From an uncultured virus (IMG/VR IMGVR_UViG_3300034196_000153) (taxonomy: Duplodnaviria; Heunggongvirae; Uroviricota; Caudoviricetes): a stretch of 64,000 bases of DNA. The notes beneath the pieces were generated by a model that was given only the letters and a program-made list of their open reading frames with translations, did not search any database and had not been told where the DNA came from. Location of the stretch: the IMG/VR virus record IMGVR_UViG_3300034196_000153; one strand, written 5' to 3'. The position numbers were made by a program, and so were the translations under genes. Shown in pieces: positions 10,756 to 55,116 of the stretch (position 1 is its first letter; each line of letters opens with the position of its first letter).

Positions 10756-12027
10756 ATGAAACGTAATTATAATATTCATCCATTGTTCAAAGATGACATT
10801 CAACACGCTAAAACATTATTGGCTAAAAAAGGCTATACACTTGATGTAGATCTTTTTACGACGCTTAATGAAAAAAGACTTTCATTGCTTCAAGAAGCAG
10901 AAAGCTATAAAAAAGAAATCAATACGCTCTCAAAGTCTACCCCACGAGACACAGACTTCATTCAAAATATTGCTCGCTCAAAAGAGATGAAAGCTAAACT
11001 TTTGTTGGTTGAACAAGAGTACGTTGTGGCTGAAGAACAATTCGTTGATTACTTCTGTGCTATCCCTAACTTTCCACATGTCAGTGTTCCAGAAGGTGTT
11101 GATGAGCAGGGTAACGTAGAAGTTAAACGTCATCTTGAACCCACTAAGTTTTCACATGATATTAAAGACCATGTGGCATTAGGTGACCGTAAACAGCAAC
11201 TGGATATTAAAGCAGGTGTTGCTCTTTCAGGTAGCCGTTTTATCGTGCTGCGTAATGACATTGCTAAATTGCACCGTGCCTTGATTCAATTTATGTTGGA
11301 CACTCATACCGATGACGGATATCAAGAACACTATGTTCCTTATATTGTGAATGATGACGCTTTGTATGGAACTGGTCAGTTGCCTAAGTTTCAAGAAGAC
11401 CTCTATCAGTTGAAAAACAAAGAGAATGCTTACTTGATCCCAACCGCAGAAGTCCCATTGACAAACTTGTTTGCGGGGCAATTCTTGCCAGAAGCTGACT
11501 TGCCTATTAATATCACTGCTCATACACCTTGCTTCCGTTCAGAAGCTGGCTCATACAGCAAGGATATTGTCGGTCTTATCCGTCAACATCAATTTGAGAA
11601 GGTCGAGCTTGTAAAGATTGTTAAAGCTGATGAATCTTATGTTGAACTTGAAAACATGCTTAATCAGTCAGAGAAGATTTTGCAGTTGCTTAACTTGCCT
11701 TATCGTGTCGTCGCTTTGTGTGGTGGTGATATGGGGTTCTCAGCCGCTAAAACTTATGACATTGAAGTCTGGGTTCCTAGCCAGAACACATATCGTGAGA
11801 TTTCTTCTGTTTCAAACTGTGAAGACTTCCAAGCTCGTAGAATGCTGGCTAAATACAAAACATCAACTGGTAATCATTACGTTCATACATTGAATGGTTC
11901 TGCGTTGGCGGTAGGTCGTTGCTTATTGGCTATCTTGGAAAACTTCCAAAATGAAGATGGATCTGTTAATGTTCCAGAAGTGCTTCAACCTTACATGAGA
12001 AATCAAACAAAAATTTTGGAGCTTTAA
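10756..12027 (+). CDS. serS: Seryl-tRNA synthetase
   Basis: N-terminal coiled coil; GTGQLPKF, LIPTAEVPL, FRSEAGS, GLIRQHQFEKVE, KTYDIEVW, EISSVSNC, HTLNGSALAVGR. Confidence 0.98.
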   Translation: MKRNYNIHPLFKDDIQHAKTLLAKKGYTLDVDLFTTLNEKRLSLLQEAESYKKEINTLSKSTPRDTDFIQNIARSKEMKAKLLLVEQEYVVAEEQFVDYFCAIPNFPHVSVPEGVDEQGNVEVKRHLEPTKFSHDIKDHVALGDRKQQLDIKAGVALSGSRFIVLRNDIAKLHRALIQFMLDTHTDDGYQEHYVPYIVNDDALYGTGQLPKFQEDLYQLKNKENAYLIPTAEVPLTNLFAGQFLPEADLPINITAHTPCFRSEAGSYSKDIVGLIRQHQFEKVELVKIVKADESYVELENMLNQSEKILQLLNLPYRVVALCGGDMGFSAAKTYDIEVWVPSQNTYREISSVSNCEDFQARRMLAKYKTSTGNHYVHTLNGSALAVGRCLLAILENFQNEDGSVNVPEVLQPYMRNQTKILEL

Positions 12028-12861
12028 GTGTCTAAACTCAATTCAAAAGAAATCTGCCAGCCACTGTTAGAACATGCTAAAACAGTGCTGTCGGATGGTT
12101 TGGATCGCCCTTTTGAACAATACACTGTTGATTATGGACACGATGGTTTTTCAATTTTTAAAAATAGAAAGACAGGTTACAAATCGAGTGCTTATAACAT
12201 CCTTAATGCCTACGTGTTACCCTGTGAAAATGGTAACTTTTTAAAAGTAGGCACGGATGGATCTATTGATGACTACAAGAACCTTTATTCAACACTTTTT
12301 AAAGATTCTATTGTGGATGAAGCCTACCTTCAAGCTATTATTCAGAAGTTTTTTGAAGCAGGATTAAGATGGAATCAGTTTGACTCTGTGGAATATCACC
12401 CAAAAGATTTATCCATTGATTCATTAACTTCTGATGACAACCATCGAAGAAAATCAACGAGTAAAAAACATTTGGCAATGTTCTATTATTCAGCTCGTAG
12501 TCGTAAAGCTGAACAACGCCGTCGATTTAGCAATAGAAAAAGTAAAGCAGCCTATTCAGTGTGTACCATGAGTTTAAACATGTCTACTTATACAGGTGAA
12601 TTGTCGCCTGTCTATGTGTTAAATATTCCTTTGTTGGCTGATATTAAGTTGACTATCATGGTGGATGCTAATAAAGGTATTAGTGAAGATGACGTTCAAT
12701 TGTTAGTTTATAAATATGAACGCCGCATTCGTTCTCAGTTGTATGACATCATTAAACGTAATCTTAGACTTAAAGACCATGAGTCATTAGGTGAAGTCAC
12801 TGAATACTCTATGCAGCAACTTGTTGATTATGTGATTGTAACAGAAATGGCTGCTTATTGA
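12028..12861 (+). CDS. Hypothetical protein, MxxI-motif family (ends TEMAAY); abuts the serS stop
   Basis: GTG immediately after serS TAA, GGAG RBS; terminal motif. Confidence 0.75.
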   Translation: MSKLNSKEICQPLLEHAKTVLSDGLDRPFEQYTVDYGHDGFSIFKNRKTGYKSSAYNILNAYVLPCENGNFLKVGTDGSIDDYKNLYSTLFKDSIVDEAYLQAIIQKFFEAGLRWNQFDSVEYHPKDLSIDSLTSDDNHRRKSTSKKHLAMFYYSARSRKAEQRRRFSNRKSKAAYSVCTMSLNMSTYTGELSPVYVLNIPLLADIKLTIMVDANKGISEDDVQLLVYKYERRIRSQLYDIIKRNLRLKDHESLGEVTEYSMQQLVDYVIVTEMAAY

Positions 12862-12912
12862 TTTAACTCTAAAAATATGGTATAATCGTGCCATATTTTG
12901 GAGATTTAATTC

Positions 12913-13674
12913 ATGTCAACTTTATTAGACAATGCTACGTTTATTAAAAACAATATTGTAAAATTTATTGTTGACGTTTTAGTTCGTGAATTAGATTCTT
13001 TTTCTATTGAAGAGAATGCAGATCAAACAGGGGCTATTATTACCTGTTACTACAAAACAGAAAAAAATAAATTGCACTCTATTTCTGCAGATTGTTTACA
13101 CGACACCCAAGAAATTAGTATTAAATCCAGTGCAAACCCCGGACTGATTCGAGACTTCTATTGGTTTTTCATGTCTAAACAAGAAAATGAACAACTACAT
13201 CTTATTAAAGACTCTATCAACGCCATTCTTAGTGAATTTCAGGTAGGTTCAGTGCATATGAAATTTAATGCTCAGCCTATGGGTGAAATTTACCATGATA
13301 AAAAAAGAAAAAGTAAATATTGTATTCATAAAGAAATGTTACAAGGTAAAATTTCATTTGAAAGCCATTTTAATGAATTTTCTTTCATGAACGCACGTCT
13401 TAAAGGTAAACCTTATTACTATTTGGATGGCTCCATATTAAAATCTAGTAAGATGATACAATTTGTTATTACAGCTCAATCATTTTCTCTTGACTTAAAA
13501 GATGATGAAGATTTTTTGAATAGAGTTAATACAATGTGCAGCAGTATTTACGCTATTGTTTTTAAAAACGCAGTTTCTACTATTTCAGAAAAGTTTTGTC
13601 TTGATGATATAAGCTGTTTTTCTGAGGATGATATTAAAGGTTATCTAACACTTATGACTATGGAAAATATTTAA
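12913..13674 (+). CDS. Hypothetical protein, MxxI-motif family (ends TMENI)
   Basis: TGGTATAAT promoter, GGAG RBS. Confidence 0.75.
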   Translation: MSTLLDNATFIKNNIVKFIVDVLVRELDSFSIEENADQTGAIITCYYKTEKNKLHSISADCLHDTQEISIKSSANPGLIRDFYWFFMSKQENEQLHLIKDSINAILSEFQVGSVHMKFNAQPMGEIYHDKKRKSKYCIHKEMLQGKISFESHFNEFSFMNARLKGKPYYYLDGSILKSSKMIQFVITAQSFSLDLKDDEDFLNRVNTMCSSIYAIVFKNAVSTISEKFCLDDISCFSEDDIKGYLTLMTMENI

Positions 13675-14486
13675 TGAACGAATTCACCACCGTTGATAAC
13701 ATTAAACAAGCATTCAGTTTTATACTGGGTGATGATTATTCTCTTAATTTTTATGAAGATCAAAAAACGTTTTATTTGTTTAATACTGTGACCATGAAAA
13801 GAATGCTCACTTTTGAATACGATAAAGAATCTCGTAAATTTAGTTATTATATATTAACTGATTATGATTTTGCTGATACAGCAAGCTCTATTTTCAAACA
13901 AGTGATGGAGTTTAAAACCTGCCAGATGATTTCAGATGCGTTCTTTAATCATGAAATTTCTAAGATTATTTTCAAAGATCCTATTGTTTTTGACGAAAAA
14001 ACGTTTCATCGATCAAAAAACTTGGGTAAACAGATAAAATCTTCTCCTAACTTCTATTACAGAAATGCATGGAATATGATTTTTGTAGAGATGGGTTATA
14101 TTGTAACAGAAAATTTTAACATTAAACCGATTATTGATTTTTGTATCAATTTGCGTGGTTTTGGTAAAATTCGATTTTTTGTTGATGAGGATGCAGGAAC
14201 ATTTACTAAACTATTGGATACAACGCATTACAATTTATGTACAGAACAGCCTGATCTTAGTAATACTGTCGTCAGTATTATCTCATCAGCCGATGTCGGA
14301 GTAAAAGATAGCGTTAATGATGAACCTACTTTGGTTAACCTTAATGATTACATTCAGGATTTCATGATTAAGCTGTCAACTGAGTTATACCCGTTTTATG
14401 TCAATCAATTTAATTTGGTAGACATCAGTAGTGAGGCTAATGGATCTCTTAATGATTTTAAAGTATTGGAGATGTTAAAAGTATGA
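13674..14486 (+). CDS. Hypothetical protein, MxxI-motif family (ends LEMLKV)
   Basis: TAATG coupling; terminal motif. Confidence 0.75.
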   Translation: MNEFTTVDNIKQAFSFILGDDYSLNFYEDQKTFYLFNTVTMKRMLTFEYDKESRKFSYYILTDYDFADTASSIFKQVMEFKTCQMISDAFFNHEISKIIFKDPIVFDEKTFHRSKNLGKQIKSSPNFYYRNAWNMIFVEMGYIVTENFNIKPIIDFCINLRGFGKIRFFVDEDAGTFTKLLDTTHYNLCTEQPDLSNTVVSIISSADVGVKDSVNDEPTLVNLNDYIQDFMIKLSTELYPFYVNQFNLVDISSEANGSLNDFKVLEMLKV

Positions 14487-15262
14487 CAAATAAAAAAGAA
14501 GTCAATCACCTTTTGTTTATTAAAAAGGATTTTAGTCACCTATTGAAAGAAAAATTTAATCTTGATGTGATTGGAACTAATATTAAACATAAAGTCGATA
14601 TGTGTCAGTCTGATGTCATTAAATTTACTGTGTGTTTCAATAATGAGCATAAGTTTATTTATGTCTATATTAATCGACAAGATAAAAAGACTATTCATAT
14701 TTCAACTGATATTAATGAAACCTTTCTTGATGAACTATCTCAACTGCTTTTGCATAAAGATGCTGATTCATTCATCAAAGATTTTAATAAGGGATTTTTA
14801 GACTTTACGAACAAATATAGTTTATTAAAGTCTTCAGATTTTCATGATGAACCCTTCTTTAAATCACAGTTTGGTTTCATTAGATCGTACAGCTCTCATT
14901 CTTATTTTTATGCGATGAGAAGCTATTCGAACCATTTTTTGAATGCTAAATTATACAAAGTTCAAAATTCAATGATTATGATGACCACTAAATTGATGTT
15001 TCAATATTGTGATGGTCAATTTATTGCGTATCCTTATCTTAAAATTAAGTTTGGTTCTGTTGAACATGATATTCATTTGTCGAGTGCTCACACTATGCAG
15101 AATAATCTTGCTGGTTTTTTGACAAAAGTTAAAAATGAAATCGACCCTATTGTGCAAACTCTTTTCAAAAAATTATTTGATATTGATGAAGCAGGTTTTA
15201 AAGCTCTCAATAAAGAATCTTTTGAAGATCACCTCGCCATCATTGCAATGCAGCATATTTGA
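14483..15262 (+). CDS. Hypothetical protein, MxxI-motif family (ends AMQHI)
   Basis: ATGA overlap; terminal motif. Confidence 0.75.
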   Translation: MTNKKEVNHLLFIKKDFSHLLKEKFNLDVIGTNIKHKVDMCQSDVIKFTVCFNNEHKFIYVYINRQDKKTIHISTDINETFLDELSQLLLHKDADSFIKDFNKGFLDFTNKYSLLKSSDFHDEPFFKSQFGFIRSYSSHSYFYAMRSYSNHFLNAKLYKVQNSMIMMTTKLMFQYCDGQFIAYPYLKIKFGSVEHDIHLSSAHTMQNNLAGFLTKVKNEIDPIVQTLFKKLFDIDEAGFKALNKESFEDHLAIIAMQHI

Positions 15263-15277
15263 GATAGGATATTAATA

Positions 15278-16192
15278 ATGAAAAATATTGATCTAACAGC
15301 CTTACTTAGCAGTATCAACAGTGGTGCTGTCAAAGTGACAACTTTTAATCAAGCAACAAAAGATAACAAGGAAAAACAAGAGGCCGCTATGAAAGAATAT
15401 GATCCACTTATAAAACAAATTAGATCTATACTGGTTGATAAGTATGGTCCTAAAACCTATCCTATTGAAATTAATGACCCCTATCAAACTTATGGATTCA
15501 GAATTGTTCTTGAAACTGGTCCTAGACCCTTTGATAATAAATACTTACGAGTTTATAACAATGTGTATGATGGTCAAGCTGTTTATTCAATTTTTAATGA
15601 TAAGATTGATAAAAGTAAAGTTGTTCTCACTTTATTTGAACAGTTGATGGCTGGCCGTGATTTTCCATCTTATATTATGGAGGCTGTTATTGATCGTTAT
15701 ATCAAAGAGACTAATGAATTTGAATTCTTTGAAAAGTTTGAAAAAAGTGCTATTCCACAACAGTTAAAAGATTTTTTCGTAAAGACTAAAACTTACAAAG
15801 ATACAAAAGAGCAACGTTTGTGTAAATCTTATTATGGTTATCTTTCAAAGACTGAGAATTCAAGAAAACAAACGAGCTTTTCATTTTCTCCGTCCAAAGT
15901 AGAAATTGTCTTGCTGCGAGATGAAAAAGGGGGATTCGTGCCGGGATTTTTATTTAACTTACCTGTCTTATCAACTTTAAAATTTAAGTATGCAGTTCCT
16001 ATGTTTTCTGATAATATGGAAGCTTCTATTGATGAGCTATTTGAGAAATTTAATGCTAAATTCATAAAGTGTGTGGTTAATATTATTGGTAGAGCTGAAA
16101 ACTTAAAACTGAAGGAGAAAAAATTAATGATGACCTTGCCAAGAGCCGAGTTAATTGGTCGATTGAAAGTAACTGAGATGTTGACGTATTAA
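15278..16192 (+). CDS. Hypothetical protein, MxxI-motif family (ends TEMLTY)
   Basis: AGGA RBS; terminal motif. Confidence 0.75.
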   Translation: MKNIDLTALLSSINSGAVKVTTFNQATKDNKEKQEAAMKEYDPLIKQIRSILVDKYGPKTYPIEINDPYQTYGFRIVLETGPRPFDNKYLRVYNNVYDGQAVYSIFNDKIDKSKVVLTLFEQLMAGRDFPSYIMEAVIDRYIKETNEFEFFEKFEKSAIPQQLKDFFVKTKTYKDTKEQRLCKSYYGYLSKTENSRKQTSFSFSPSKVEIVLLRDEKGGFVPGFLFNLPVLSTLKFKYAVPMFSDNMEASIDELFEKFNAKFIKCVVNIIGRAENLKLKEKKLMMTLPRAELIGRLKVTEMLTY

Positions 16193-16194
16193 CG

Positions 16195-16986
16195 ATGTCA
16201 AACATTAACCAGACGATTATTGACGCTGTTTCTAAAACCTTTGATGGTCATTTTGTTTCGGCCACATTTTTAAACAGTTCAACACTTTCATTAACTCATC
16301 AGAACAATGAGCCAGTCGCCTTGTTAAATTTTCATGGGAATGTTCTTTCGCGTTCAGTTTTTTATAATGAAGATGTCTATTTATCATGTATTCCAGATAT
16401 TATGTATACCCGAGAAGAAAACAAGCTACTCAAAAAAGCGTTTTCATCTTTTTGCTTGAATGATGCCCTTGTTCATATGATTAAAACTAAGGGGGATTTT
16501 GATTTAAAATCCATTCATCGAGTCGTTACTGTCAACCAACGAGTCGAGCATATGTTTTATAATTCATGTACATTATCAGATATAGATCTTTATCACTCAC
16601 CGAAAAGACACAACTTCTATTATTCTTATGACAAGCGAATGGTTTTAGATAATGCTGGAAAATTTCACCCGATCTTAGTGTTGGATATCTCTTTAAAACA
16701 AAAGACTTATTCAATTTTACTATCGCCTGAACTGAATAAAGCGGCGAATATTTCAACGTTTAGTGGAAATAATGCTGATAGGTGTTTATTGACCTTTGAA
16801 CAATTGTTCGATAATGGTGTTGAGATTAATGATTTAAAGACTGCAATTGATAGTAATTGGACATACGATATTTTCTTTTACTATATTGACATTCTTCTTA
16901 ACGACAGGAAACTGGTTGAGAGTATTTTTGACAGTTGTTCTAATTACGCTGAAATGATGAATTTGGTTGAAATGAATCGTATATAA
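16195..16986 (+). CDS. Hypothetical protein, MxxI-motif family (ends VEMNRI)
   Basis: Long ORF in the operon; terminal motif. Confidence 0.75.
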   Translation: MSNINQTIIDAVSKTFDGHFVSATFLNSSTLSLTHQNNEPVALLNFHGNVLSRSVFYNEDVYLSCIPDIMYTREENKLLKKAFSSFCLNDALVHMIKTKGDFDLKSIHRVVTVNQRVEHMFYNSCTLSDIDLYHSPKRHNFYYSYDKRMVLDNAGKFHPILVLDISLKQKTYSILLSPELNKAANISTFSGNNADRCLLTFEQLFDNGVEINDLKTAIDSNWTYDIFFYYIDILLNDRKLVESIFDSCSNYAEMMNLVEMNRI

Positions 16987-17019
16987 TGTTATACTCATTC
17001 ATTATTTTTGGAGCTTATT

Positions 17020-17817
17020 ATGGAAAATTTTAGAAATGCTGTTTCTGGGGCATTTGATACCAGAACAACAAAAACAACATTTTTTGAATATGAGCAATAT
17101 CCTATGATGGACACGCAAGTTCATATTTTGTTTAAAAAACATAAAAACCCCGTTAATATAGATAAAAAATTTTTAAGTTTTGCTATTTCGCCGGGACAAC
17201 CATTTTTCCATTCAATTTGTCTCAAAGATCTTGCTTTTATAGATAAGTTTAATCAAATGTTTCAAATGCATAAAACATCAAGAGAAGATTTCGTCTTTAT
17301 CAATGACTATCTTCATTCTTTTCATAAAAATGATAATTTTTCAAAATTATTGATAATGAATGATCATATCAAATCTCATGAGTTTTATACTTTCAAAAAA
17401 TTATATATGTTAGAAAAAGACGAGACTAAATATGGTGTAACATCTTGTGTTCACACGTCTTACAGAAGTGTTGCACAATATGAATTTATTAAAAACTTTT
17501 CAATAACCCGTGATGGAGCAATAGCCCTGTTTCCAACTGTTCATTTTTTTAAGCATGTTAATCCATTTTCATTATATTTTAGCCTGTCTAATAAAAAGGT
17601 ATATAAACTTCCAGAAAGTTTAGCTGGCTTAGTGACGTTGGAAGATATTGTAGAAGCCAGCACCCTTTTTACACATCATGACATTGATGTTTTTACAGAT
17701 GAAATATTGATGATGTATGTGTGTAATCTTCATAATGGAGTTTATCAAGAATTTTTAGACATACCACAAGAAAATATTTCTGATAAGATAGATTTATTAC
17801 TAATGACCACTATTTAA
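17020..17817 (+). CDS. Hypothetical protein, MxxI-motif family; related to 50256 and 51982
   Basis: F.(I/L/M)(T/S)(R/K)(D/N)G....P and P......K(I/V)D(L/I)..M..I shared. Confidence 0.75.
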   Translation: MENFRNAVSGAFDTRTTKTTFFEYEQYPMMDTQVHILFKKHKNPVNIDKKFLSFAISPGQPFFHSICLKDLAFIDKFNQMFQMHKTSREDFVFINDYLHSFHKNDNFSKLLIMNDHIKSHEFYTFKKLYMLEKDETKYGVTSCVHTSYRSVAQYEFIKNFSITRDGAIALFPTVHFFKHVNPFSLYFSLSNKKVYKLPESLAGLVTLEDIVEASTLFTHHDIDVFTDEILMMYVCNLHNGVYQEFLDIPQENISDKIDLLLMTTI

Positions 17818-25315: not shown

Positions 25316-25411
25316 ACTTCTCCGCTCTATGCTTCTGTTAGAGGCATTATCTATTTAACTAAAAAATCAGCTACACACAAACACAATTAAATTTTCGTGG
25401 AGAAAAATATT

Positions 25412-26671
25412 ATGAACGCATTTATTCAAGAACTCAAACAACGTGGCCTCGTTTCTCAGATGACAGACGAAAGCAAAATTTCAGACCTTATGGATAATGG
25501 TTTGTCTCTATACTGCGGATTTGACCCAACAGCAGAGTCTTTGCATGTGGGTAGTCTTTTGCCATTGATTACTATGCTTCGCTTTAAGAAAGCGGGCCAT
25601 ACTGTGTTCCCATTGATTGGTGGTGCTACCGGCATGATTGGTGACCCTAGCTTTAAAGCACAAGAACGTACTTTGAATGACGCGGAAACCGTTAATCGTT
25701 TCAAAGCAGGTATTGCTGGTCAAATCAAACATATTCTGGGTGATGTAGAACTTGTTGATAACCATGATTGGACTGTTAACCTTTCAGTCATTGATTTCCT
25801 TCGTGATGTGGGTAAGCATTTCTCTGTGAATGCTATGATGAGTAAAGATTCGGTACGTAGCCGCTTGGATCGTGATGATCAAGGTATTTCTTTTACTGAG
25901 TTCTCATACCAGCTCCTGCAGTCAATGGACTTCCATCACTTGATGAAAGAGAAAAACTGCCGTCTTCAATTGGGTGGTAGCGATCAGTGGGGTAACATCA
26001 CTGCTGGTATCGACCTTATCCATCGTAAAGAAGGTAATGATGTCGTCGCCACTGGCTTGACTATTCCATTGTTGACCAAAGCAGATGGCACGAAGTTTGG
26101 TAAAAGTGAAAGTGGTGCGGTTTGGTTGTCCTCAGAAATGACCAATCCTTTTGATTTCTTCCAGTTTTGGTTGAAAGTGGCGGATGCGGATATTCCGAAG
26201 TTCTTCAAAATGCTTTCTTTTAAGTCTATTGAAGAAATTGATGCTATCCTTGAAGCTGATAAAGAACGCACTAAACCGATGGCTCAACAGCTTTTGGCCG
26301 AGGAATTAACCGCTATTGTTCATGGTCAAGCAGCACTTGATTCTGTATTGCGTAACATCAAAGCTTTGTTTGATAACAACTTTGATAGCTTGCAAGAAGA
26401 TGATTTTGTCAATCTTGAAAAGAACGGTATGGTTGCTGTTATTCCTGAGACATTGAATGTGCTTGATTTGATGGTCGCTACTGGTTTGGCTAAGTCGAAA
26501 CGACAAGGCCGAGAGTTTATCCAGAGTGGTGCTGTTCAAGTAAACGGTAACAAGTTGGTAGTCAGCGAGGATGATATGAACGCTCTTGAAATTACAGATT
26601 TCAAGTTTGGTAAATTCGCTGTCTTTCAACGTGGCAAACGAGAGTTCAGATTGATTAAAAAGCCCGCCTAG
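25412..26671 (+). CDS. tyrS: Tyrosyl-tRNA synthetase
   Basis: YCGFDPTAESLHVG (HIGH-like), GGATGMIGDPS, EFSYQLLQ, QLGGSDQWGNI, KFGKS, C-terminal S4-like domain. Confidence 0.98.
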   Translation: MNAFIQELKQRGLVSQMTDESKISDLMDNGLSLYCGFDPTAESLHVGSLLPLITMLRFKKAGHTVFPLIGGATGMIGDPSFKAQERTLNDAETVNRFKAGIAGQIKHILGDVELVDNHDWTVNLSVIDFLRDVGKHFSVNAMMSKDSVRSRLDRDDQGISFTEFSYQLLQSMDFHHLMKEKNCRLQLGGSDQWGNITAGIDLIHRKEGNDVVATGLTIPLLTKADGTKFGKSESGAVWLSSEMTNPFDFFQFWLKVADADIPKFFKMLSFKSIEEIDAILEADKERTKPMAQQLLAEELTAIVHGQAALDSVLRNIKALFDNNFDSLQEDDFVNLEKNGMVAVIPETLNVLDLMVATGLAKSKRQGREFIQSGAVQVNGNKLVVSEDDMNALEITDFKFGKFAVFQRGKREFRLIKKPA

Positions 26672-47812: not shown

Positions 47813-47850
47813 TACAAAAAAGCCAGAAATCATCTGGCTTTTCTTTACTC

Positions 47851-48658: not shown

Positions 48659-49378
48659 TTACTTTAGTTTCAATTTTGCCAACATGCACTCATTATCTTC
48701 CCAGTCAACCTCATTTTTATATTTAAATCCTAAATCTTCCAAAATTTTAATCATGTCTCGAATACTTATCTTTTTAGTTGCACTGGTTTCTTTTAACTGA
48801 TAATGGTATTCGTCCATTTTGTCTAGATAGGTTGGTATCATATCCATTAAAATATCACTGACGTATAAATCTGGATCGGAGTTAAAGCAATCCATAAATA
48901 TGAAACAAAATGATTCTAGCTCACCACTGGCGTTTGTAATCATCAGCGTGTCTAACCCATTCGTAACATAATTGAGTTCGTTATAATACGTTTCATCAGG
49001 AAAAAAGAAGGTGAATTGATTAGCGACTTGAAATTTTTGTTCTTTTGTTAATGCATTGGTCGCTTTAATAAAGTCATCCATTGAATCACCATTATTATAG
49101 TTTTCTAATGATTTGATAACTTTTTTTAGAAATTTTTTGGCATCAAACTCGTTGGTTTCAGATTTAGAATTCTCAACTACATCAGCTTCATTTACCACGG
49201 AGAGATGACCTAAGATATCTTCTTTGATTAGACACGTTTCATCATTAAATTTAAAAACACGAATAACATTGCCATTGACATCTTTATATTTTCGATCTCG
49301 CTTGATGTTGACAGTAGATGTCAATCCAAAGCGATCTTTAATGTAATTTTTGCAATCTTCTGTAGTAATTTTACTCAT
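48659..49378 (-). CDS. Hypothetical protein, MSK.TTEDCK family, paralog 2
   Basis: Start set by alignment to the paralogs. Confidence 0.8.
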   Translation of the reverse strand: MSKITTEDCKNYIKDRFGLTSTVNIKRDRKYKDVNGNVIRVFKFNDETCLIKEDILGHLSVVNEADVVENSKSETNEFDAKKFLKKVIKSLENYNNGDSMDDFIKATNALTKEQKFQVANQFTFFFPDETYYNELNYVTNGLDTLMITNASGELESFCFIFMDCFNSDPDLYVSDILMDMIPTYLDKMDEYHYQLKETSATKKISIRDMIKILEDLGFKYKNEVDWEDNECMLAKLKLK

Positions 49379-49410
49379 ATTATTTTTCCTACTGGTTAGT
49401 GTATGGTTGG

Positions 49411-50130
49411 TTATTTTAAATTGAGGTGTTTGAGCATACAATCATCTTCGTCACCATAAAACTCAGGGCAACTTTTATATGAAAAACCAAGGCTATCAAA
49501 TAATTTTATGACATCATTGATTGTCATGTCTTTATTTTGGTTGTTGGGCCTCATTTCAAAAATGTTTTCATCCACTTTTTCAAAAAACTTAGGGATGATA
49601 ACTTTTACAATTTCATCCAGATAGAGTTCAGGATCAGATTTTAAGCTGTTATGGAAGAAAATCCCATAAGTGAGTGGCCCATATTTTCCAGATCTAAACA
49701 TGGGTGTATCTAGGCCGTTTGTGACAGAATCCATATCGTTTTCGTAAACCAAAGGGAAGCAGTAGTAAAATTCGTTGGCTATTTTAACTTTGTCTTCTTT
49801 TGACAAACGTTCACCTTCTGCTATAAATTCGTCCATACTTTCAATTCCATCGTCTTCATCATCACTAAATTTTTTAAGATATTTTCTGAGGAATGCTTTG
49901 GCATTAAAGAGTTTTTCTTTTTGTTCTATCATGGTTTCACTGACCAGCGATAACTGACCTTGATTGTCTTCTTTAATAAGATAGATATCAGTCTCATTTA
50001 TTTTAAAAACACGAATGACGTCGCCATTGGCATCTTTATATTTTCTATCTCGTTTGATATTGACTGTTGTAGTTAAGCCAAAGTGTTGTTTAATGAAATT
50101 TTTGCAATCTTCTGTAGTAATTTTACTCAT
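49411..50130 (-). CDS. Hypothetical protein, MSK.TTEDCK family, paralog 3
   Basis: GGAG RBS; alignment to the paralogs. Confidence 0.8.
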   Translation of the reverse strand: MSKITTEDCKNFIKQHFGLTTTVNIKRDRKYKDANGDVIRVFKINETDIYLIKEDNQGQLSLVSETMIEQKEKLFNAKAFLRKYLKKFSDDEDDGIESMDEFIAEGERLSKEDKVKIANEFYYCFPLVYENDMDSVTNGLDTPMFRSGKYGPLTYGIFFHNSLKSDPELYLDEIVKVIIPKFFEKVDENIFEMRPNNQNKDMTINDVIKLFDSLGFSYKSCPEFYGDEDDCMLKHLNLK

Positions 50131-50255
50131 GTATTGACTCCAATTTATCAACTATCATAGCATAAAACACCACTTTTTGTCAAAATTTAATTTTATTATT
50201 TTTGTTGATGAAATTTCTATTTTGTGTTATTATTCAATATATTTTGGAGATTATT

Positions 50256-51050
50256 ATGATATTTAAAGACGTTGAACGAGAGCTAACTCAGCTTTTTTCT
50301 ACCAAATTTCCAGAGGTTAATGTTAAATTATCTAAAGTTGACTCTGATATTGATGATGCCATTATGTTTAAATCCTCTTTTGATGATGGAAATAAATTTA
50401 TAGGTTTTAAAATTCGTGATAATTCTATTATCGAAATCAACGCAAGTCATAGACATTTAGAAAATGCTCATAAATTATTTTCTCTTAATAAGGTTAAAGT
50501 TGATTCATTTAATATCATTCCAGTCTTTCTTAATCTTCTGTCAAAAAATTCTAATTTTAATAGAGTTTTTACATTGTTTAATAGCATAAATGAAAAAAAA
50601 ATATTTCGTTTCTATACAAGTGGGCGGGCTTATATATTGCCATGTATCACAGCAGATCATGGTTTTTCTCGATTAACAAGTGTCTTAGACGAAACTTATT
50701 CCCAACTTTATCTTGAAAATTCTTTTAAATTATCTCGTAATGGTAAATTTTTACCTGTTCCAATAATTCGAGTTTTCGTAGATCAAAATAATGAGCAAGT
50801 TTTTGCGTTTAATCTCTATGATCAACAAGTTTACAAGGTCAAAAAGAAATTATTCTACTTTGAAGATTTTTTTGAAGCTGCAGAGTTGTTTGATGTTGAC
50901 TATCATGGTGACATTTTAGTTGATGAGTACATTGATCATCAGGTTATCAATGGATTGATAGATGAAAAATCTATTAGAGAATCACTCATTGTGCTTCCAA
51001 GAGATCAATTGAAGAATAAAATTGATTTAATCTCAATGTACCTTATTTGA
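50256..51050 (+). CDS. Hypothetical protein, MxxI-motif family; paralog of 51982
   Basis: IRESLIVLPRD.L..K.D..SMYLI. Confidence 0.8.
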   Translation: MIFKDVERELTQLFSTKFPEVNVKLSKVDSDIDDAIMFKSSFDDGNKFIGFKIRDNSIIEINASHRHLENAHKLFSLNKVKVDSFNIIPVFLNLLSKNSNFNRVFTLFNSINEKKIFRFYTSGRAYILPCITADHGFSRLTSVLDETYSQLYLENSFKLSRNGKFLPVPIIRVFVDQNNEQVFAFNLYDQQVYKVKKKLFYFEDFFEAAELFDVDYHGDILVDEYIDHQVINGLIDEKSIRESLIVLPRDQLKNKIDLISMYLI

Positions 51051-51117
51051 TATAATTGTAATCTTGAAATATTTTTTCATCATGATAACCTTATATAATC
51101 AATAAAGGTATTATATT

Positions 51118-51918
51118 ATGGGCGGAATGGTCGCAGTGTTAGCACGATTTAAAGACAACACAAAAATGTCATTTAGGATATCAACTGGGTGTTTGACGCC
51201 TTTTCATGATTTAAGATTGCTTGATGAGGATTACTTTAAAGCCTTCGTTAAAAAAGAAGAATATTATATTGAAGACGCGGTAGCAGATTATGAACAGGAA
51301 GATTATTATAATGCTCGATGTTTTTTTGCACCCTATGATTATGGACTTCTCTTTTTTGATTTTAAAGAAAAACACATTTGGTCGAGTAATAACTATAATG
51401 GATTCTTTTCATTAAGCAGTTGGCAAGTTAAATCTCAATATAAAGAAATTGCCGATATTTTATCTTATGGAACACAAACAAAAGAAACGTTAACTATTAC
51501 TGAGCAAGATTATGTTAATGGTGAATTTATCACAAGAAGGGAATATCATTTCCTTGAAGATTACTCACAAGAATTTAGTTCAATTTTCTATATGCAACAA
51601 GTCTTAGATAAAAAAGGAACCTTTACTTACAAAGGAAATCCATTACCAGATGAAATCACTGACATCTATTCTCTATTGGCTTATATTAATGGCGAAGATC
51701 TCTTGTTAGAAGAAAATTTAAAAAGAGATCGAGTTAAGAACAGAACTAGATTCCTTCGCAGTGATACGTGTGATTTAGATGCAGTTCTCCCTGATTGGAC
51801 TATTTACAATGGTGATGGGAATGTTTCCTATATACAACCCATATTTGATTATGTGGTTAAACACAATATCCTTAATGAACGCGATTTAAAATACTGGAAC
51901 CAATACTTAAATGATTAA
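51118..51918 (+). CDS. Hypothetical protein, MGG-start family (distant)
   Basis: MGG.V....R.K; AP..YG...FDFKE. Confidence 0.7.
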   Translation: MGGMVAVLARFKDNTKMSFRISTGCLTPFHDLRLLDEDYFKAFVKKEEYYIEDAVADYEQEDYYNARCFFAPYDYGLLFFDFKEKHIWSSNNYNGFFSLSSWQVKSQYKEIADILSYGTQTKETLTITEQDYVNGEFITRREYHFLEDYSQEFSSIFYMQQVLDKKGTFTYKGNPLPDEITDIYSLLAYINGEDLLLEENLKRDRVKNRTRFLRSDTCDLDAVLPDWTIYNGDGNVSYIQPIFDYVVKHNILNERDLKYWNQYLND

Positions 51919-51981
51919 TCTTTCATTTTAATTGAAATCATAGGCACTTTATGCTATAATCTAGCAAATTATGGAGTATCT

Positions 51982-52767
51982 ATGAACGACGATAAGATTC
52001 CACAACCCATTGCTGACTTATTTGCTTCTCGTTATCCGAAAAGCAAATTTGAGTCCACATCTATCAATGATATTATCATTTTCAAATCGACATTTGATAA
52101 AGAAAAACAATTTGTTGACTTTATTTTTAAGAAAAATTCAATTACTACCATAAAAACCAATAATAAATACCTTCCAGAAGTTAAAAAGCTTTTGTCTATT
52201 AATAAGATGAAACGTAGTGACTTTAAGATTGTAGACGATTTTTTTACTCTCATAAATTCAAACAGCAATTTTGATAAAATTTTTTACATGGAGAACAAAA
52301 TTCTTCCTACTGAAATTTGTTCGTTCAAACGTGACGGTACGTCTGCTTTTACATTACCTTTTATTGCGAATACACATTCTCGCACTTATCTTATTACTAA
52401 GATCAGCAAAAGTTATTTTATGTATTACTTAGAGAATCACTTTAAGATGACGAAAGATGGCACCATCTTAATTGTTCCTATGATCACCTTGTTTGAGCAT
52501 CAGAAAAATGAGCATGTATTTGCCTTTAACATTTATGATCAGACTATTCATCGCATTCGAAATGAAGAATTTTACTTTGAAGACTTTTTTGAAAACAATG
52601 AGCCGTTCAACCCAGAATATCATGGTGATATTTTTGTCGATGAATATATTGATAACTACATTCTTAACACCCTTGACGATGATGACGAAATCAGAGAATC
52701 CCTTATTGTATTGCCAAGAGATCGTTTGAGCGAAAAAGTAGACATTCTTTCTATGTATCTGATCTAA
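51982..52767 (+). CDS. Hypothetical protein, MxxI-motif family; paralog of 50256
   Basis: YHGDI.VDEYID shared. Confidence 0.8.
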   Translation: MNDDKIPQPIADLFASRYPKSKFESTSINDIIIFKSTFDKEKQFVDFIFKKNSITTIKTNNKYLPEVKKLLSINKMKRSDFKIVDDFFTLINSNSNFDKIFYMENKILPTEICSFKRDGTSAFTLPFIANTHSRTYLITKISKSYFMYYLENHFKMTKDGTILIVPMITLFEHQKNEHVFAFNIYDQTIHRIRNEEFYFEDFFENNEPFNPEYHGDIFVDEYIDNYILNTLDDDDEIRESLIVLPRDRLSEKVDILSMYLI

Positions 52768-52846
52768 ACATGTCGCCTATAATTTAAATTGACAAAAATT
52801 GTAACATGATATACTATTGCATAAATTTTATTACAGGAGAATTATT

Positions 52847-53074
52847 ATGTTTTATGTCTATCATGGCTATGTTTCACCCGACAACTACGATTCAAGCGAA
52901 CGTCCTACTTATCAACTGAGTTCTTTTCATACCGAAGATGAAGTCATAGCATTTAAAGAAGAGTTTGAAGCTGAACTTCATGAGGAATGTATGAAACCTA
53001 TTTTTAGAGTCATCACAGGTAGAGAAATGTCATTGAAACCCGTAGAAACCGTCACTACTTGGAAACTATCATAA
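52847..53074 (+). CDS. Small hypothetical protein
   Basis: TTGACA/TATACT promoter, AGGAG RBS. Confidence 0.65.
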   Translation: MFYVYHGYVSPDNYDSSERPTYQLSSFHTEDEVIAFKEEFEAELHEECMKPIFRVITGREMSLKPVETVTTWKLS

Positions 53075-53088
53075 CTTAGGAGTTATCT

Positions 53089-53937
53089 ATGCACTATATT
53101 AAGTATGTATTAAGCTTTATCTTATTACTGGTATTGGCTGGTTGTAATGATACACCTGATGACGTTCGTCCAACAGCAGATGCAAAAGTCTATTTTGATC
53201 AACAACTGAAAACTACTCTGGCTGCTGCAAAGTCAAAAGAAGACCCTTTTGAAGCTTATCAACTATTGTTAAGGGCTTATTATGGTCTAGGTAATGATAA
53301 GGAAAAACTACTCTATAAAGATGACACTAGAAAGTTATATATTGCTCAATCTGGATTTGTTGTGAACGGCGGCTCAGCACTAGATAATAAACAAGAAGCG
53401 ATTAATAATATGTATGTTTATTTAGATTCTGCTTTGGAAAACGGTAATAAAAAAGCTTTTCTAGAATTATATGAAGGCGAACAATCAGAACCAGCCAACT
53501 TTGGTAATGATATGACAATGAGGCTTAAATCTGATCAATTGCAAACTAAATTCAGCGAAGCTTATAAAAATTTAGTTGAAACACTTTCAGTAGGTGATCC
53601 TATTGATAATGCTCTGATTACAAGCTATGCAAGCCAACTTAAAAATGGTGAGTTCTATCAAAAGAATACAGCTAAGTCAGTTGAATACTATCTCAAACTC
53701 TACCCAGTTGATAAAGTTGTTCCTTTATACTTGATTGGTGTCTATTTGGATATCAATGATTATGAGAATGCTTATTTCTGGAAAGTTCGTTGTATTGATG
53801 CCTGTGATGCTAGATATAAGAAAATTAGTATTGTTAGTCGAAATCTACCTGACTTATTCAGAAAACAGCTAACCAGTGATCAATTTAAAGCTATCGAAGA
53901 AGCTTCCAATGATCCAACAAGAACAAGTTTTAAATAA
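53089..53937 (+). CDS. Lipoprotein with Sel1/TPR-like helical repeats
   Basis: Lipobox LAGC; G....KN..K...YY, D...AYFW patterns. Confidence 0.65.
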   Translation: MHYIKYVLSFILLLVLAGCNDTPDDVRPTADAKVYFDQQLKTTLAAAKSKEDPFEAYQLLLRAYYGLGNDKEKLLYKDDTRKLYIAQSGFVVNGGSALDNKQEAINNMYVYLDSALENGNKKAFLELYEGEQSEPANFGNDMTMRLKSDQLQTKFSEAYKNLVETLSVGDPIDNALITSYASQLKNGEFYQKNTAKSVEYYLKLYPVDKVVPLYLIGVYLDINDYENAYFWKVRCIDACDARYKKISIVSRNLPDLFRKQLTSDQFKAIEEASNDPTRTSFK

Positions 53938-53950
53938 TCTAACATACCGC

Positions 53951-53979
53951 TTGAATTTTTTTAAGCGGGCTGCTATAAT
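53951..53979 (+). promoter_or_regulatory. sigma70 promoter of the Ser/Tyr leader
   Basis: TTGAAT-17 nt-TATAAT with extended TG. Confidence 0.75.
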
Positions 53980-54013
53980 GGATACTATTATTTACTTTGT
54001 GGAGAAATACAAA

Positions 54014-54064
54014 ATGAAACCTACATTTGCTGTATCCTATTATTATTCATCATATTCTAGTTAA
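54014..54064 (+). CDS. Ser/Tyr-rich attenuator leader peptide MKPTFAVSYYYSSYSS
   Basis: GGAG RBS at 54001; last 9 codons are TCC TAT TAT TAT TCA TCA TAT TCT AGT. Confidence 0.85.
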   Translation: MKPTFAVSYYYSSYSS

Positions 54065-54153
54065 CTGACCAGAGTAGAGGTCAGTTATGGCCTCGAATTC
54101 TTGGATAGTAATTATCTTAGACCCTTTGAAGGCCACCTTCAGAGGGTTTTTTT
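54053..54153 (+). promoter_or_regulatory. Transcription attenuator (alternative hairpins plus terminator)
   Basis: Overlapping helices 54053-62/54067-76, 54062-70/54079-87, 54077-83/54088-94, 54088-97/54125-35, terminator 54121-32/54136-47 plus U-tract. Confidence 0.8.
54121..54153 (+). terminator. Rho-independent terminator (attenuator terminator)
   Basis: ACCCTTTGAAGG-CCA-CCTTCAGAGGGT-TTTTTT. Confidence 0.9.
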
Positions 54154-54193
54154 ATGTCCATAGTGGCAGGGTTAAGTTCAACCTAAAACAATG

Positions 54194-54206
54194 TAAGTTA
54201 TTGATT
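54194..54206 (-). promoter_or_regulatory. IHF consensus site
   Basis: Reverse complement AATCAATAACTTA matches WATCAANNNNTTR. Confidence 0.5.
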
Positions 54207-54243
54207 TAAAAAGAAAATAGTTTAAAATAATTTAAAATAGTTG

Positions 54244-54272
54244 TTGACAAAGACGAAAGAAGTTGATAGAAT
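54244..54272 (+). promoter_or_regulatory. Strong sigma70 promoter for the tRNA array
   Basis: TTGACA-17 nt-TAGAAT, extended TG, AT-rich UP region. Confidence 0.8.
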
Positions 54273-54324
54273 GTTAAACATGAAGAGTTGAGAAGAAAAA
54301 CGAAAAACTCTTAGTAACACAAAT

Positions 54325-54412
54325 GGAAGATTGGTCGAGTGGCCGATGGCGTCAGTCTTGAAAACTGAAGGGTGTAACAGCTCCGTGAGTTCGAATCTCA
54401 CATCTTCCTCCA
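54325..54412 (+). tRNA. tRNA-Ser(UGA), copy 1 (U73 discriminator)
   Basis: GGAAGAT/ATCTTCC acceptor, TCAGT-CTTGAAA-ACTGA, long variable arm, TTCGAAT, CCA. Confidence 0.93.
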
Positions 54413-54434
54413 AATTTAGTTTCAAAAGTATCAT

Positions 54435-54518
54435 GGTTAGTTGGCAGAGTGGACGATTGCGGGGGACTGTAAATCCCTTCCGAAAGGCACGGTGGTTCGA
54501 ATCCATCACTAACCACCA
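54435..54518 (+). tRNA. tRNA-Tyr(GUA), copy 1
   Basis: GGTTAGT/ACTAACC, GGGGA-CTGTAAA-TCCCT, A73-CCA. Confidence 0.92.
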
Positions 54519-54540
54519 AATTAGTTGTAAACTGTTTTAT

Positions 54541-54624
54541 GGGAGTTTCGCATAGTGGCCGATTGCACGGGACTGTAAATCCTGCTCGAAAGACTCGGTG
54601 GTTCGAATCCATCAACTCCCACCA
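54541..54624 (+). tRNA. tRNA-Tyr(GUA), copy 2
   Basis: GGGAGTT/AACTCCC, CGGGA-CTGTAAA-TCCTG, A73-CCA. Confidence 0.92.
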
Positions 54625-54649
54625 AATTAGATGTAATAGTAAGAATTAT

Positions 54650-54739
54650 GGACGCCTTTCCTTGTCATCGCTCTGTAAAAGCGACGCCTTAATAAGACAG
54701 GTCGGTTGGCGTGAGGTTCGAATCCTTGGGCGTCCACCA
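54650..54739 (+). ncRNA. Atypical tRNA-Tyr(GUA)-like RNA lacking a D-arm, with an enlarged variable arm
   Basis: GGACGCC/GGCGTCC acceptor, TCGCT-CTGTAAA-AGCGA, TGAGG-TTCGAAT-CCTTG, ACCA; only 11 nt in place of the D-arm. Confidence 0.75.
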
Positions 54740-54760
54740 AATTAGTTGTAAACCGTATAT

Positions 54761-54848
54761 GGAAGCTTGGCCGAGTGGTTTAAGGCAACAGTCTTGAAAA
54801 CTGTCGAGTGTAACAGCTCCGTGAGTTCGAATCCCACAGCTTCCGCCA
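54761..54848 (+). tRNA. tRNA-Ser(UGA), copy 2
   Basis: GGAAGCT/AGCTTCC, ACAGT-CTTGAAA-ACTGT, G73-CCA; one T-stem mismatch. Confidence 0.92.
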
Positions 54849-54874
54849 AATTTAGATGTAACCTGTTTTATTAT

Positions 54875-54958
54875 GGGGGGTTCGCATAGTGGCCGATTGC
54901 ACGGGGCTGTAAACTCTGATCGAAAGACACGGTGGTTCGAATCCATCACCCCTCACCA
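54875..54958 (+). tRNA. tRNA-Tyr(GUA), copy 3
   Basis: GGGGGGT/ACCCCTC, CGGGG-CTGTAAA-CTCTG, A73-CCA. Confidence 0.9.
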
Positions 54959-54971
54959 AATTTAGATTTAT

Positions 54972-55024
54972 GGGAAGTATGTGGCTGTTGTTATGTCGTA
55001 ACAATGGTTAATCGCTACCCACCA
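54972..55024 (+). ncRNA. CCA-ended minihelix-like hairpin (tRNA remnant or mimic)
   Basis: GGGAAGT/GCTACCC acceptor-like stem plus 12 bp hairpin plus ACCA. Confidence 0.5.
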
Positions 55025-55028
55025 ACAT

Positions 55029-55116
55029 GGAAGCGTGGCCGAGCGGTTTAAGGCACTAGTCTTGAAAACTAGCGGATGTAACAGTCCCGTGAGTTCGAAT
55101 CTCACCGCTTCCGCCA
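55029..55116 (+). tRNA. tRNA-Ser(UGA), copy 3
   Basis: GGAAGCG/CGCTTCC, CTAGT-CTTGAAA-ACTAG, G73-CCA. Confidence 0.94.

Follow-up and report, generated by a model that had tools for sequence, protein, structure and literature searches.

Serine and tyrosine tRNA genes behind a probable leader-peptide attenuator in DNA of a very large phage-like genome

The DNA analysed in this study is a stretch of 64,000 nucleotides (hereafter the window) from an uncultured virus of the class Caudoviricetes (IMG/VR record IMGVR_UViG_3300034196_000153). It carries a compact array of tRNA genes specific for serine and tyrosine, as well as the genes serS and tyrS, encoding a seryl- and a tyrosyl-tRNA synthetase (SerRS and TyrRS). 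Our analysis indicates that the array is probably headed by a leader-peptide transcription attenuator, whose short open reading frame (ORF) ends in a run of Ser and Tyr codons, and that the phage SerRS and TyrRS may supply charging for the same two amino acids. The attenuator is proposed on the basis of the sequence, RNA folding, the comparison of three lineages and one triple covariation, and the predicted combination of a Ser/Tyr array with a sensor is well supported by these data. The lineages compared with the window were G001, the closest relative reached (a 437,043-bp contig in IMG/VR, whose synteny with the window extends over approx. 4.4 kb to 64 kb of the latter), and L115, a third, distinct relative placed on a 520,353-bp contig.

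Ser/Tyr tRNA array

ARAGORN identified exactly six tRNA genes in the 64 kb, all of them on the + strand between positions 54325 and 55116, in the order Ser(UGA), Tyr(GUA), Tyr, Ser, Tyr, Ser (Table 1). The same six tRNAs, and nothing else, were found with Rfam at the gathering score (with 47.6-59.8 bits each), and a search of the whole window at E<=0.05 also returned only these tRNAs, with no T-box or other known leader elsewhere. Each of the six has a cloverleaf structure with a long variable arm and the cognate anticodon, and most copies possess a canonical anticodon loop (CUGUAAA in Tyr, CUUGAAA in Ser). Long variable arms are typical of both bacterial tRNA-Ser and bacterial tRNA-Tyr, for which the expected discriminator bases are G73 and A73, respectively. 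All three tRNA-Tyr genes contain the G1-C72 pair, A73, the GUA anticodon and the long variable arm, and G73 is present in two of the three tRNA-Ser genes, the first of which has U73.

An earlier interpretation of this DNA, made without database searches (the sequence-only reading), had stated that serS and tyrS are the only synthetase genes, and Ser(UGA) and Tyr(GUA) the only tRNAs, of the 64 kb. This was borne out by ARAGORN, Rfam, Pfam, NCBIfam and tblastn. Its count of three to four Tyr copies proved correct for three canonical genes; the fourth is real, but it lacks a D arm, is non-canonical, and was called by neither ARAGORN nor Rfam (see below). Its suggestion that divergent tRNAs may need the element's own synthetases found no support, as the identity elements are ordinary (G1-C72, A73 and GUA in Tyr, G73 in two of three Ser copies) and, judging from the sequences and general identity rules, the array tRNAs do not look unchargeable by a host enzyme.

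Comparison of the three lineages revealed that the array consists of Ser and Tyr tRNAs only in each of them, despite turnover of copy number and anticodons. The gene order is Ser(CGA), Ser(GCU), Tyr, Tyr, Ser(UGA), Ser(AGA) in G001, and Ser(AGA), Ser(GCU), Tyr, Tyr, Ser(UGA), Tyr, Ser(UGA) in L115. The first tRNA-Ser carries U73 in all three lineages, and its anticodon is UGA (window), AGA (L115) or CGA (G001); between the window and L115 it differs only in anticodon base 34, as read from the printed sequences. Spacers and units of the array are repeated, and contigs of other runs show duplications and deletions of units.

Table 1. Features of the window and of related contigs considered in the analysis (positions refer to the window unless another contig is named)
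Feature	Position	Strand	Basis and remarks
Sigma-70-like promoter candidate upstream of serS, TTGAAT-17-TAGAAT	10705..10733	+	pattern match, weak
serS, full-length bacterial-type, 423 aa	10756..12027	+	Pfam, NCBIfam, PDB, G001 orthologue
tyrS, full-length bacterial-type	25412..26671	+	Pfam, NCBIfam, PDB, G001 orthologue
Promoter P1, TTGAAT-17-TATAAT with TG	53951..53979	+	10/12 matches; conserved in G001 and L115
Leader ORF, MKPTFAVSYYYSSYSS followed by stop	54014..54064	+	SD GGAG 9 nt upstream; ORF and SD conserved
Hairpin A, UAACUGACC / GGUCAGUUA, includes stop codon	54062..54087	+	folding, comparison
Hairpin B, GAGGUCA / UGGCCUC	54077..54094	+	folding, comparison
Antiterminator, 54088-54097 with 54125-54135 (terminator upper 5' arm and loop)	54088..54135	+	minimum free energy fold
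Intrinsic terminator, 14-bp stem, CCA loop, U run	54119..54153	+	pattern match; -20.1 kcal/mol
Promoter P2, TTGACA-17-TAGAAT with TG, behind AT-rich tract, before array	54244..54272	+	11/12 matches
tRNA-Ser(UGA) no. 1, discriminator U73	54325..54412	+	ARAGORN, Rfam
tRNA-Tyr(GUA) no. 1	54435..54518	+	ARAGORN, Rfam
tRNA-Tyr(GUA) no. 2	54541..54624	+	ARAGORN, Rfam
Non-canonical tRNA-Tyr-like RNA, 90 nt	54650..54739	+	sequence and comparison; not called by ARAGORN/Rfam
tRNA-Ser(UGA) no. 2	54761..54848	+	ARAGORN, Rfam
tRNA-Tyr(GUA) no. 3	54875..54958	+	ARAGORN, Rfam
Minihelix-like spacer hairpin, ends CCCACCA, before last tRNA-Ser	54971..55025	+	sequence and comparison
tRNA-Ser(UGA) no. 3	55029..55116	+	ARAGORN, Rfam
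PD-(D/E)XK endonuclease ORF	55127..55531	+	Pfam PF11645 E 2.5e-11; phrog_5018
Terminator-like hairpin closing the unit	55530..55554	+	pattern match
G001: CUA tRNA; four-base-anticodon tRNA	375947-376020; 389162-389237		ARAGORN
tRNA-Ser(CGA) after serS	L004 3796-3885; L005 11384-11473; L015 380-469		
G001: PBECR5, TilS, DnaK/efflux/MCP/TnpB loci	145138-146625; 62987-64249; 181-185 kb; 113-117 kb		

Leader ORF and control region

The intergenic region that precedes the array shows 82% mean column identity over its whole length in the three lineages. Its elements are arranged in the following order: promoter-like sequence P1, which follows the end of the upstream gene at position 53937, a Shine-Dalgarno (SD) sequence, the leader ORF, two overlapping hairpins, an intrinsic terminator followed by an AT-rich tract, and P2, a near-consensus promoter conserved in G001 and L115.

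The leader ORF of the window comprises 16 codons and its last nine sense codons (9/9) all specify Ser or Tyr, in agreement with the earlier observation that these two amino acids fill the leader peptide. Its homologues are MKTTLMTTSYYYSYYSH in G001 and MKPTFKFSSSYYYSYSR in L115, each followed by a stop codon, with Ser/Tyr runs SYYYSYYS and SSSYYYSYS, respectively. In the three lineages the leader is 16-17 codons long and its Ser/Tyr run, of 8-9 codons, is retained; variation is seen in its N-terminal residues and in its final codon. Among the 1185 ATG ORFs of 8-35 aa detected in the window, a 9-mer built of just two amino acids occurs only in the leader frame (which, due to a second in-frame ATG upstream, appears twice in the small-ORF list). 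One of the 7709 small ORFs of G001 contains such a 9-mer, and this is an unrelated Leu/Ile-rich ORF; the G001 leader itself, with its run of eight residues, falls short of this length. Eleven further tRNA cluster starts of G001 were examined, and none of them has a comparable leader.

Several side observations were made downstream of the terminator. An ATG placed directly after the terminator U run (TTTTTTTATGTC; 54153-54187) is conserved in all three lineages and opens short, poorly conserved ORFs (MSIVAGLSST, MSLFDRSSFDLK and MSIIGRFSFNH, each ended by a stop codon). The segment between the terminator and P2 (54144-54298) reached a summed contig depth 10-20 times that of its flanks in DNA runs X1 and X8, and several contigs carrying variants of it run into other sequence on both sides. 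The promoter cassette with P2 thus seems to occur at more loci or genomes than this array, although no second copy was found in the window or in G001.

Predicted RNA switch

Folding analysis revealed that the region between the leader stop codon and the terminator can adopt two alternative predicted structures. Hairpin A includes the stop codon, and its formation is possible only if the ribosome is not located there. Hairpin B is mutually exclusive both with hairpin A, with which it has the segment GGUCA in common, and with the antiterminator. For free nascent RNA, extending from the base before the stop codon to the terminator loop, the minimum free energy structure consisted of hairpin A and the antiterminator in each of the three lineages (-29.9, -32.7 and -29.9 kcal/mol). 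When the stop codon and the next 12 nt were masked, as by a terminating ribosome, hairpin B and the terminator were predicted instead, again in all three.

Further evidence for the switch was provided by a triple covariation. Position 54083 is an A in the window and a G in G001, where its two alternative partners (54066 and 54088) are likewise altered, each from U to C. The 54066-54083 pair of hairpin A is thus U-A in the window but C-G in the relative, and the 54083-54088 pair of hairpin B is A-U and G-C, respectively; three distinct sequences were compared, two of which are nearly identical in the switch, and the covariation consequently rests on G001. Taken together, the control region contains the components of a leader-peptide attenuator: a promoter, a short ORF provided with an SD sequence, a run of regulatory codons, mutually exclusive predicted folds, and a terminator with a U run.

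We propose that the switch may operate as follows. When Ser-tRNA and Tyr-tRNA are plentiful, the ribosome would reach the stop codon and mask the 5' arm of hairpin A; hairpin B and then the terminator would form, and transcripts initiated at P1 would end at approx. position 54150. A shortage of either charged tRNA would cause the ribosome to stall within the Ser/Tyr run, which would permit the formation of hairpin A and leave GGCCUC free to pair with the 5' arm of the terminator. The resulting antitermination would allow RNA polymerase to read into the tRNA array, on top of basal transcription from P2. The phage SerRS and TyrRS, encoded 43 and 28 kb upstream, would supply charging for the same two amino acids.

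SerRS and TyrRS

Pfam searches identified aminoacyl-tRNA synthetase (aaRS) domains in two of the 76 window ORFs of at least 100 aa, i.e. in SerRS and TyrRS; in shorter ORFs, aaRS fragments were looked for only by tblastn with proteins of the relative. Querying the window by tblastn with the ThrRS, TrpRS, AlaRS fragment, GatA, GatB, TilS and Thg1-like protein of G001 gave only a class II cross-match of ThrRS to SerRS.

SerRS contains the class II core (tRNA-synt_2b, PF00587) and the N-terminal tRNA-binding coiled-coil arm (Seryl_tRNA_N, PF02403) of bacterial-type enzymes, and scored at the equivalog level with TIGR00414 (serS; 487.5 bits, cut-off 301.65). The TyrRS domains detected were tRNA-synt_1b, SYY_C-terminal and S4, which indicates a C-terminal S4-like domain, and its score with TIGR00234 (tyrS) was 387.7 bits (equivalog cut-off 113.8). 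Both proteins could be aligned end to end with solved bacterial enzymes (SerRS with PDB 2dq3, E 4e-133, residues 31-415 aligned; TyrRS with PDB 6otj, E 3e-125). The most likely start codon of tyrS is the ATG at position 25412, as it is preceded by an SD sequence (GGAGAA) and the alignment with G001 begins there (a longer ORF starts at 25397). The class I HIGH motif (residues 45-48 of TyrRS) is represented by HVGS both in the window and in G001, and by HIGH in the best PDB match; the KMSKS-type motif (KFGKS) is intact.

SerRS and TyrRS are 75% and 79% identical to their G001 orthologues and thus rank among the most strongly conserved pairs listed; most other orthologue pairs of the window and G001 are far more diverged. 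The order of serS and tyrS relative to the array is also conserved between the two.

A promoter of the TAGAAT type shared by serS and the array was considered and rejected as not significant (four matches in the window, 2.1 expected by chance). It is also worth mentioning that a tRNA-Ser(CGA) gene lies approx. 100 nt after serS in three small IMG/VR contigs, which may represent host/prophage junctions and were not used.

Translation genes outside the window

To judge the Ser/Tyr pair at the genome level, the translation genes of G001 were inventoried; the counts of tRNAs and aaRS are lower bounds, as approx. 167 kb of that genome are not covered. ARAGORN detected 26 tRNA genes (27 Rfam matches), of the isotypes Met (5), Ser (5), Leu (3), Thr (2), Gly (2), Pro (2), Tyr (2), Lys, Cys and Asn. 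There is also a suppressor tRNA with the anticodon CUA, and a tRNA with an 8-nt loop and a four-base anticodon. TAG ends 45 of the 395 long ORFs in G001 and 5 of the 63 in the window, and there is therefore no obvious genome-wide recoding. Screening of 193 G001 ORFs of at least 250 aa with Pfam and NCBIfam revealed SerRS, TyrRS, TrpRS, a ThrRS without its N-terminal part and a 277-aa AlaRS fragment. In addition, GatA (just under the cut-off), GatB, TilS, a Thg1-like protein, two RNA ligases and a PNKP-type phosphatase are encoded in this genome.

The ThrRS gene (208.8 kb) and a Pro-Lys-Ser tRNA cluster (214.9 kb) of G001 are located just before the stretch syntenic with the window, whose edge may thus have cut them off. 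The restriction to Ser and Tyr is a window effect: the claim of the sequence-only reading that the synthetases are accompanied only by their cognate tRNAs does not hold at the genome level, given the 26 tRNAs, ThrRS, TrpRS, GatA/B and TilS of G001. That reading had named a broad set of synthetases and tRNAs in the full genome as the finding that would reduce the Ser/Tyr match to chance. Such a set was indeed found, in the relative G001 and not in the window's own genome. Chance alone is nevertheless unlikely to account for the Ser/Tyr link, because a Ser/Tyr-only array, a Ser/Tyr leader and a terminator switch occur together in all three lineages. The idea of a dedicated Ser/Tyr channel was thus supported as far as the link itself is concerned, but not in its second part ("rather than a general supplement"), which conflicts with the gene set of G001.

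Both amino acids of the array are among the four for which G001 has a full aaRS (chance estimate 6/190 = 3%). It is likely, but unproven, that the synthetases and the array belong to one adaptive kit; the link is indirect, and is drawn from the conserved gene order, the high sequence conservation and the presence of both enzymes among the four full aaRS. Ser and Tyr are the one pair with a synthetase, multi-copy tRNAs and a putative sensor in this lineage, and the Ser/Tyr module is one of several parts of a broader translation kit.

Additional RNAs and the neighbouring endonuclease gene

The fourth tRNA-Tyr-like RNA of the array consists of a 7-bp acceptor stem, an anticodon loop CUGUAAA (GUA), a T arm, A73 and an encoded CCA, and does not form a cloverleaf, as the D arm is absent. 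The loop of its variable region (approx. 27 nt) can pair with the D-region (CCUGUC/GACAGG). This RNA is present in all three lineages with a length of 88-90 nt (L114 (G001) 3331-3418; L115 5003-5091) and is more conserved than the neighbouring canonical tRNAs: its 3' 54 nt are identical in the window and G001, and two compensatory pairs were found in the anticodon stem across the lineages. It could be a substrate of TyrRS, a regulator or a decoy.

Hairpins of approx. 50 nt that end in CCCACCA, similar to the spacer hairpin of the window, precede tRNA-Ser genes also in G001 (two; L114 approx. 3140-3217 and 3429-3486) and L115 (one; 5318-5378). Their sequence varies among the lineages while the hairpin is kept, with weak covariation (2 of 19 pairs).

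The PD-(D/E)XK endonuclease ORF starts 11 nt after the last tRNA gene and probably belongs to the same transcription unit as the array, since the terminator-like hairpin follows it. A matching start follows the array in L115, whereas G001 lacks it at this place.

Alternative explanations

Several points weigh against an attenuated array served by its own synthetases. Besides the dependence of the covariation on G001, P2 is placed between the terminator and the array, which may therefore be expressed regardless of the attenuator. No match of the window to a curated Rfam leader family reached the gathering score; that to His_leader (54047-54155) scored 32.2 bits, below the gathering score of 49, and is a resemblance of architecture, not family membership. 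At their distances from the array, serS and tyrS each have promoter-like sites of their own, neither a Ser/Tyr leader nor a T-box was found ahead of them in the ORF and Rfam scans of the window, and they share no demonstrated regulation with the array. At the genome-wide level of G001, a cognate tRNA exists for three of the four aaRS, which, given that 10 of the 20 isotypes are represented, is no better than chance (hypergeometric P ~0.29). Contigs from RNA libraries of a wastewater study match 53974-54273 (X15, five letters different), 53948-54188 (X16, four) and 54258-54412 (none different). X15 and X16 bridge the terminator and several parts of the array are uncovered, which says nothing about expression: such contigs reflect presence in an RNA library and not transcription, DNA carry-over being possible, and they cannot show RNA ends.

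One alternative is that there is no attenuator: the small ORF would be a chance frame, the hairpin the terminator of the upstream transcript, and the array constitutively expressed from P2. The near-consensus P2 behind the terminator and the sub-threshold Rfam match fit this possibility, which we nevertheless regard as very unlikely. It is opposed by the conservation of the ORF, its SD sequence and its Ser/Tyr run in three lineages in which N-terminal residues and the final codon vary, by the one base that covaries with both alternative partners, by the two-state fold predicted in all three lineages, and by the end of the upstream gene at 53937, after which P1 follows. Another alternative is a generic translation kit, in which the Ser/Tyr coincidence would result from the cutting of a 64-kb window and from tandem duplication of an ancestral Ser-Tyr tRNA pair. 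The tRNAs of G001 (26 genes, 10 isotypes and the suppressor), its ThrRS, TrpRS, AlaRS fragment, GatA/B and TilS, and the ThrRS gene and Pro-Lys-Ser cluster just upstream of the syntenic region are what this view expects, as are the repeated spacers and units of the array and their duplications and deletions in other runs; as many as 67 tRNAs and 15 synthetases have been reported in huge phages (PMC7162821). This explanation appears unlikely to us, as it accounts neither for the Ser/Tyr-only leader and switch conserved in 3/3 lineages nor for an array that stays Ser/Tyr-only while copy numbers and anticodons turn over.

Two further explanations concern the motive for supplying these two tRNAs. 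The host might not provide enough Ser and Tyr decoding for an AT-rich phage, and the module would then top up a demand. Tyr and Ser account for 5.1% and 7.3% of the window codons, with TAT making up 77% of the Tyr codons and TCA plus TCT 51% of the Ser codons. Yet Ser is surpassed in usage by Leu, Lys and Ile, and Tyr in addition by Asp, Asn, Phe, Glu, Val and Thr, all without an attenuated array; no ORF of the window is strikingly rich in the two amino acids (mean S+Y 12.3%, maximum 18.5%), and the window array lacks a tRNA for AGY, which represents 35% of its Ser codons. Codon usage does not single out Ser and Tyr, and a mere demand supplement is, in our opinion, quite improbable. Alternatively, and in line with a suggestion of the sequence-only reading, the module may serve to outlast nucleases of the host or of competitors that destroy tRNA-Tyr and/or tRNA-Ser, both of the long-variable-arm type in bacteria, with the attenuator sensing the stall and the array replacing the lost tRNAs; in a more speculative variant, the D-arm-less tRNA-Tyr-like RNA would act as a decoy. 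There are precedents: a highly expressed tRNA-Tyr of phage T5 protects against PtuAB of retron-Eco7, which degrades tRNA-Tyr (PMC11555353), toxins that cut tRNA-Ser are reported in papers on VapC (PMC10945364, PMC10287673), and bacterial Schlafen nucleases cut host and phage tRNAs (PMC13056530). The anticodon-loop and stem variants among the Tyr copies point in the same direction, as do the RNA-repair-type genes nearby (two HAD_SAK_2 proteins in the window; two RNA ligases and the PNKP-type phosphatase in G001). However, most copies have canonical anticodon loops. By analogy, counter-defence is a plausible motive for the choice of Ser and Tyr, although as a full explanation it seems to us unlikely.

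The attenuator reading could be extended to a closed-loop circuit, in which stalling at Ser/Tyr codons would act as an alarm for the loss of host tRNA-Ser or tRNA-Tyr, or of their charging, and would open the attenuator, phage tRNA-Ser and tRNA-Tyr would then be produced in abundance and charged by the phage synthetases, and the D-arm-less mimic would serve as a decoy or regulator for a nuclease or TyrRS. We mention this complete circuit as a speculative and rather doubtful scenario.

Nature of the element

The window (GC content 31%) is densely coding and contains mostly ORFans: 10 and 12 of the 76 ORFs of at least 100 aa have a match in Pfam and PHROGs, respectively. Much of it is taken up by 11 families of mostly tandem paralogous ORFs (2-4 members each), and triplets of such paralogues flank the serS-proximal DNA on both sides. 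The window belongs to a phage-like genome, very large and AT-rich, with a bacterial host, and its relatives are contigs of 437-604 kb. The largest of these (L113), a metagenome contig of 604,313 bp, contains a 12.9-kb stretch 100% identical to G001 (L114). G001 is therefore probably incomplete, lacking approx. 167 kb despite a completeness estimate of 98%, and the true size of a G001-type genome is probably ~600 kb or more, i.e. close to the top of reported phage sizes.

No terminase, portal or major capsid gene was found among the window ORFs of at least 100 aa (Pfam, PHROGs), nor in G001 (Pfam, 193 ORFs of at least 250 aa; PHROGs at E<=1e-10, only the 123 of these without an informative Pfam match). 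The phage label is probable, based on the IMG/VR listing of G001, several strong PHROG matches and jumbo-phage homologues of some ORFs. Judging from the sigma-70-type promoters, SD sequences, intrinsic terminators and the long variable arm of tRNA-Tyr, the host is bacterial. TyrRS was tried as a guide to the host and was uninformative, as it gave only matches of 35-45% identity in genome contigs of assorted phyla.

Megablast with 24 kb of the window gave no match in GenBank phages, and a 648-aa ORF adjoining an S49 protease gave no usable match in the ESM Atlas. With a NinI-like phosphatase as the query, only G001 was close among the viral contigs, and L101, L103, L104, L093 and L087 carry no Ser/Tyr array. 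Near-identical DNA was detected in contigs of six runs labelled as peat metagenome, of which one (X1) was aligned with the window, and relatives with approx. 97-98% identity in the compared pieces in one organism-labelled DNA run (X8) and in the RNA libraries of the wastewater study. Besides TilS, G001 encodes a protein with a PBECR5 nuclease domain (barnase/EndoU/colicin E5-D-like), DnaK, an efflux set of the MFS-HlyD-OEP type, an MCP-signal protein and several ORFs resembling TnpB.

Comparison with known systems

Phage tRNAs and synthetases are usually discussed as static content, whereas the present data suggest that, for two tRNA species, supply is under feedback control by the state of decoding in the infected cell. 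If this is true, phages may monitor translation stress codon by codon, the leader would be a simple sequence signature of which tRNAs matter to a phage, and Ser/Tyr decoding would be a specific battleground in this lineage. The module is also small and portable. A literature search yielded no relevant published account of leader-peptide control of tRNA genes.

Leader-peptide attenuators are known from the enterobacterial his, trp, leu, thr and pheA operons and from the synthetase operon pheST. With these the present system has in common the promoter, the short translated leader with a codon run, the alternative hairpins, the terminator and the predicted control by ribosome position. It differs in that tRNA genes would be controlled in place of biosynthetic or synthetase genes, that two amino acids would be sensed together, that a second promoter lies behind the terminator, that the genome is phage-like, and that no Rfam leader family is matched at the gathering score. 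In Firmicutes, T-box riboswitches lie upstream of serS and tyrS. The logic is the same, as the charging state of tRNA is sensed to control genes of translation supply; here, in contrast, the proposed sensor is a translated leader, the target is a set of tRNA genes, and the window contains no T-box.

Among phage systems, the tRNA-Tyr of T5 (Azam et al. 2024, PMC11555353) is likewise a phage-borne tRNA-Tyr gene behind a strong promoter; the array described here supplies Ser too, and its supply is apparently feedback-regulated. The huge phages surveyed by Al-Shayeb et al. (2020, PMC7162821) resemble our element in being large phage-like genomes with tRNAs, aaRS, tRNA-modification genes and RNA ligases, and their synthetases have been proposed to aminoacylate variant tRNAs of the phages themselves. 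Distinctive of the present lineage is a Ser/Tyr pair with its synthetases, a multi-copy array and a codon-matched putative sensor; no such regulation is described in the passages of that account that were consulted. Thus, the mechanism (leader-peptide attenuation) is known and its target is unusual, just as translation genes of huge phages are known and a matched and regulated subset of them is unusual.

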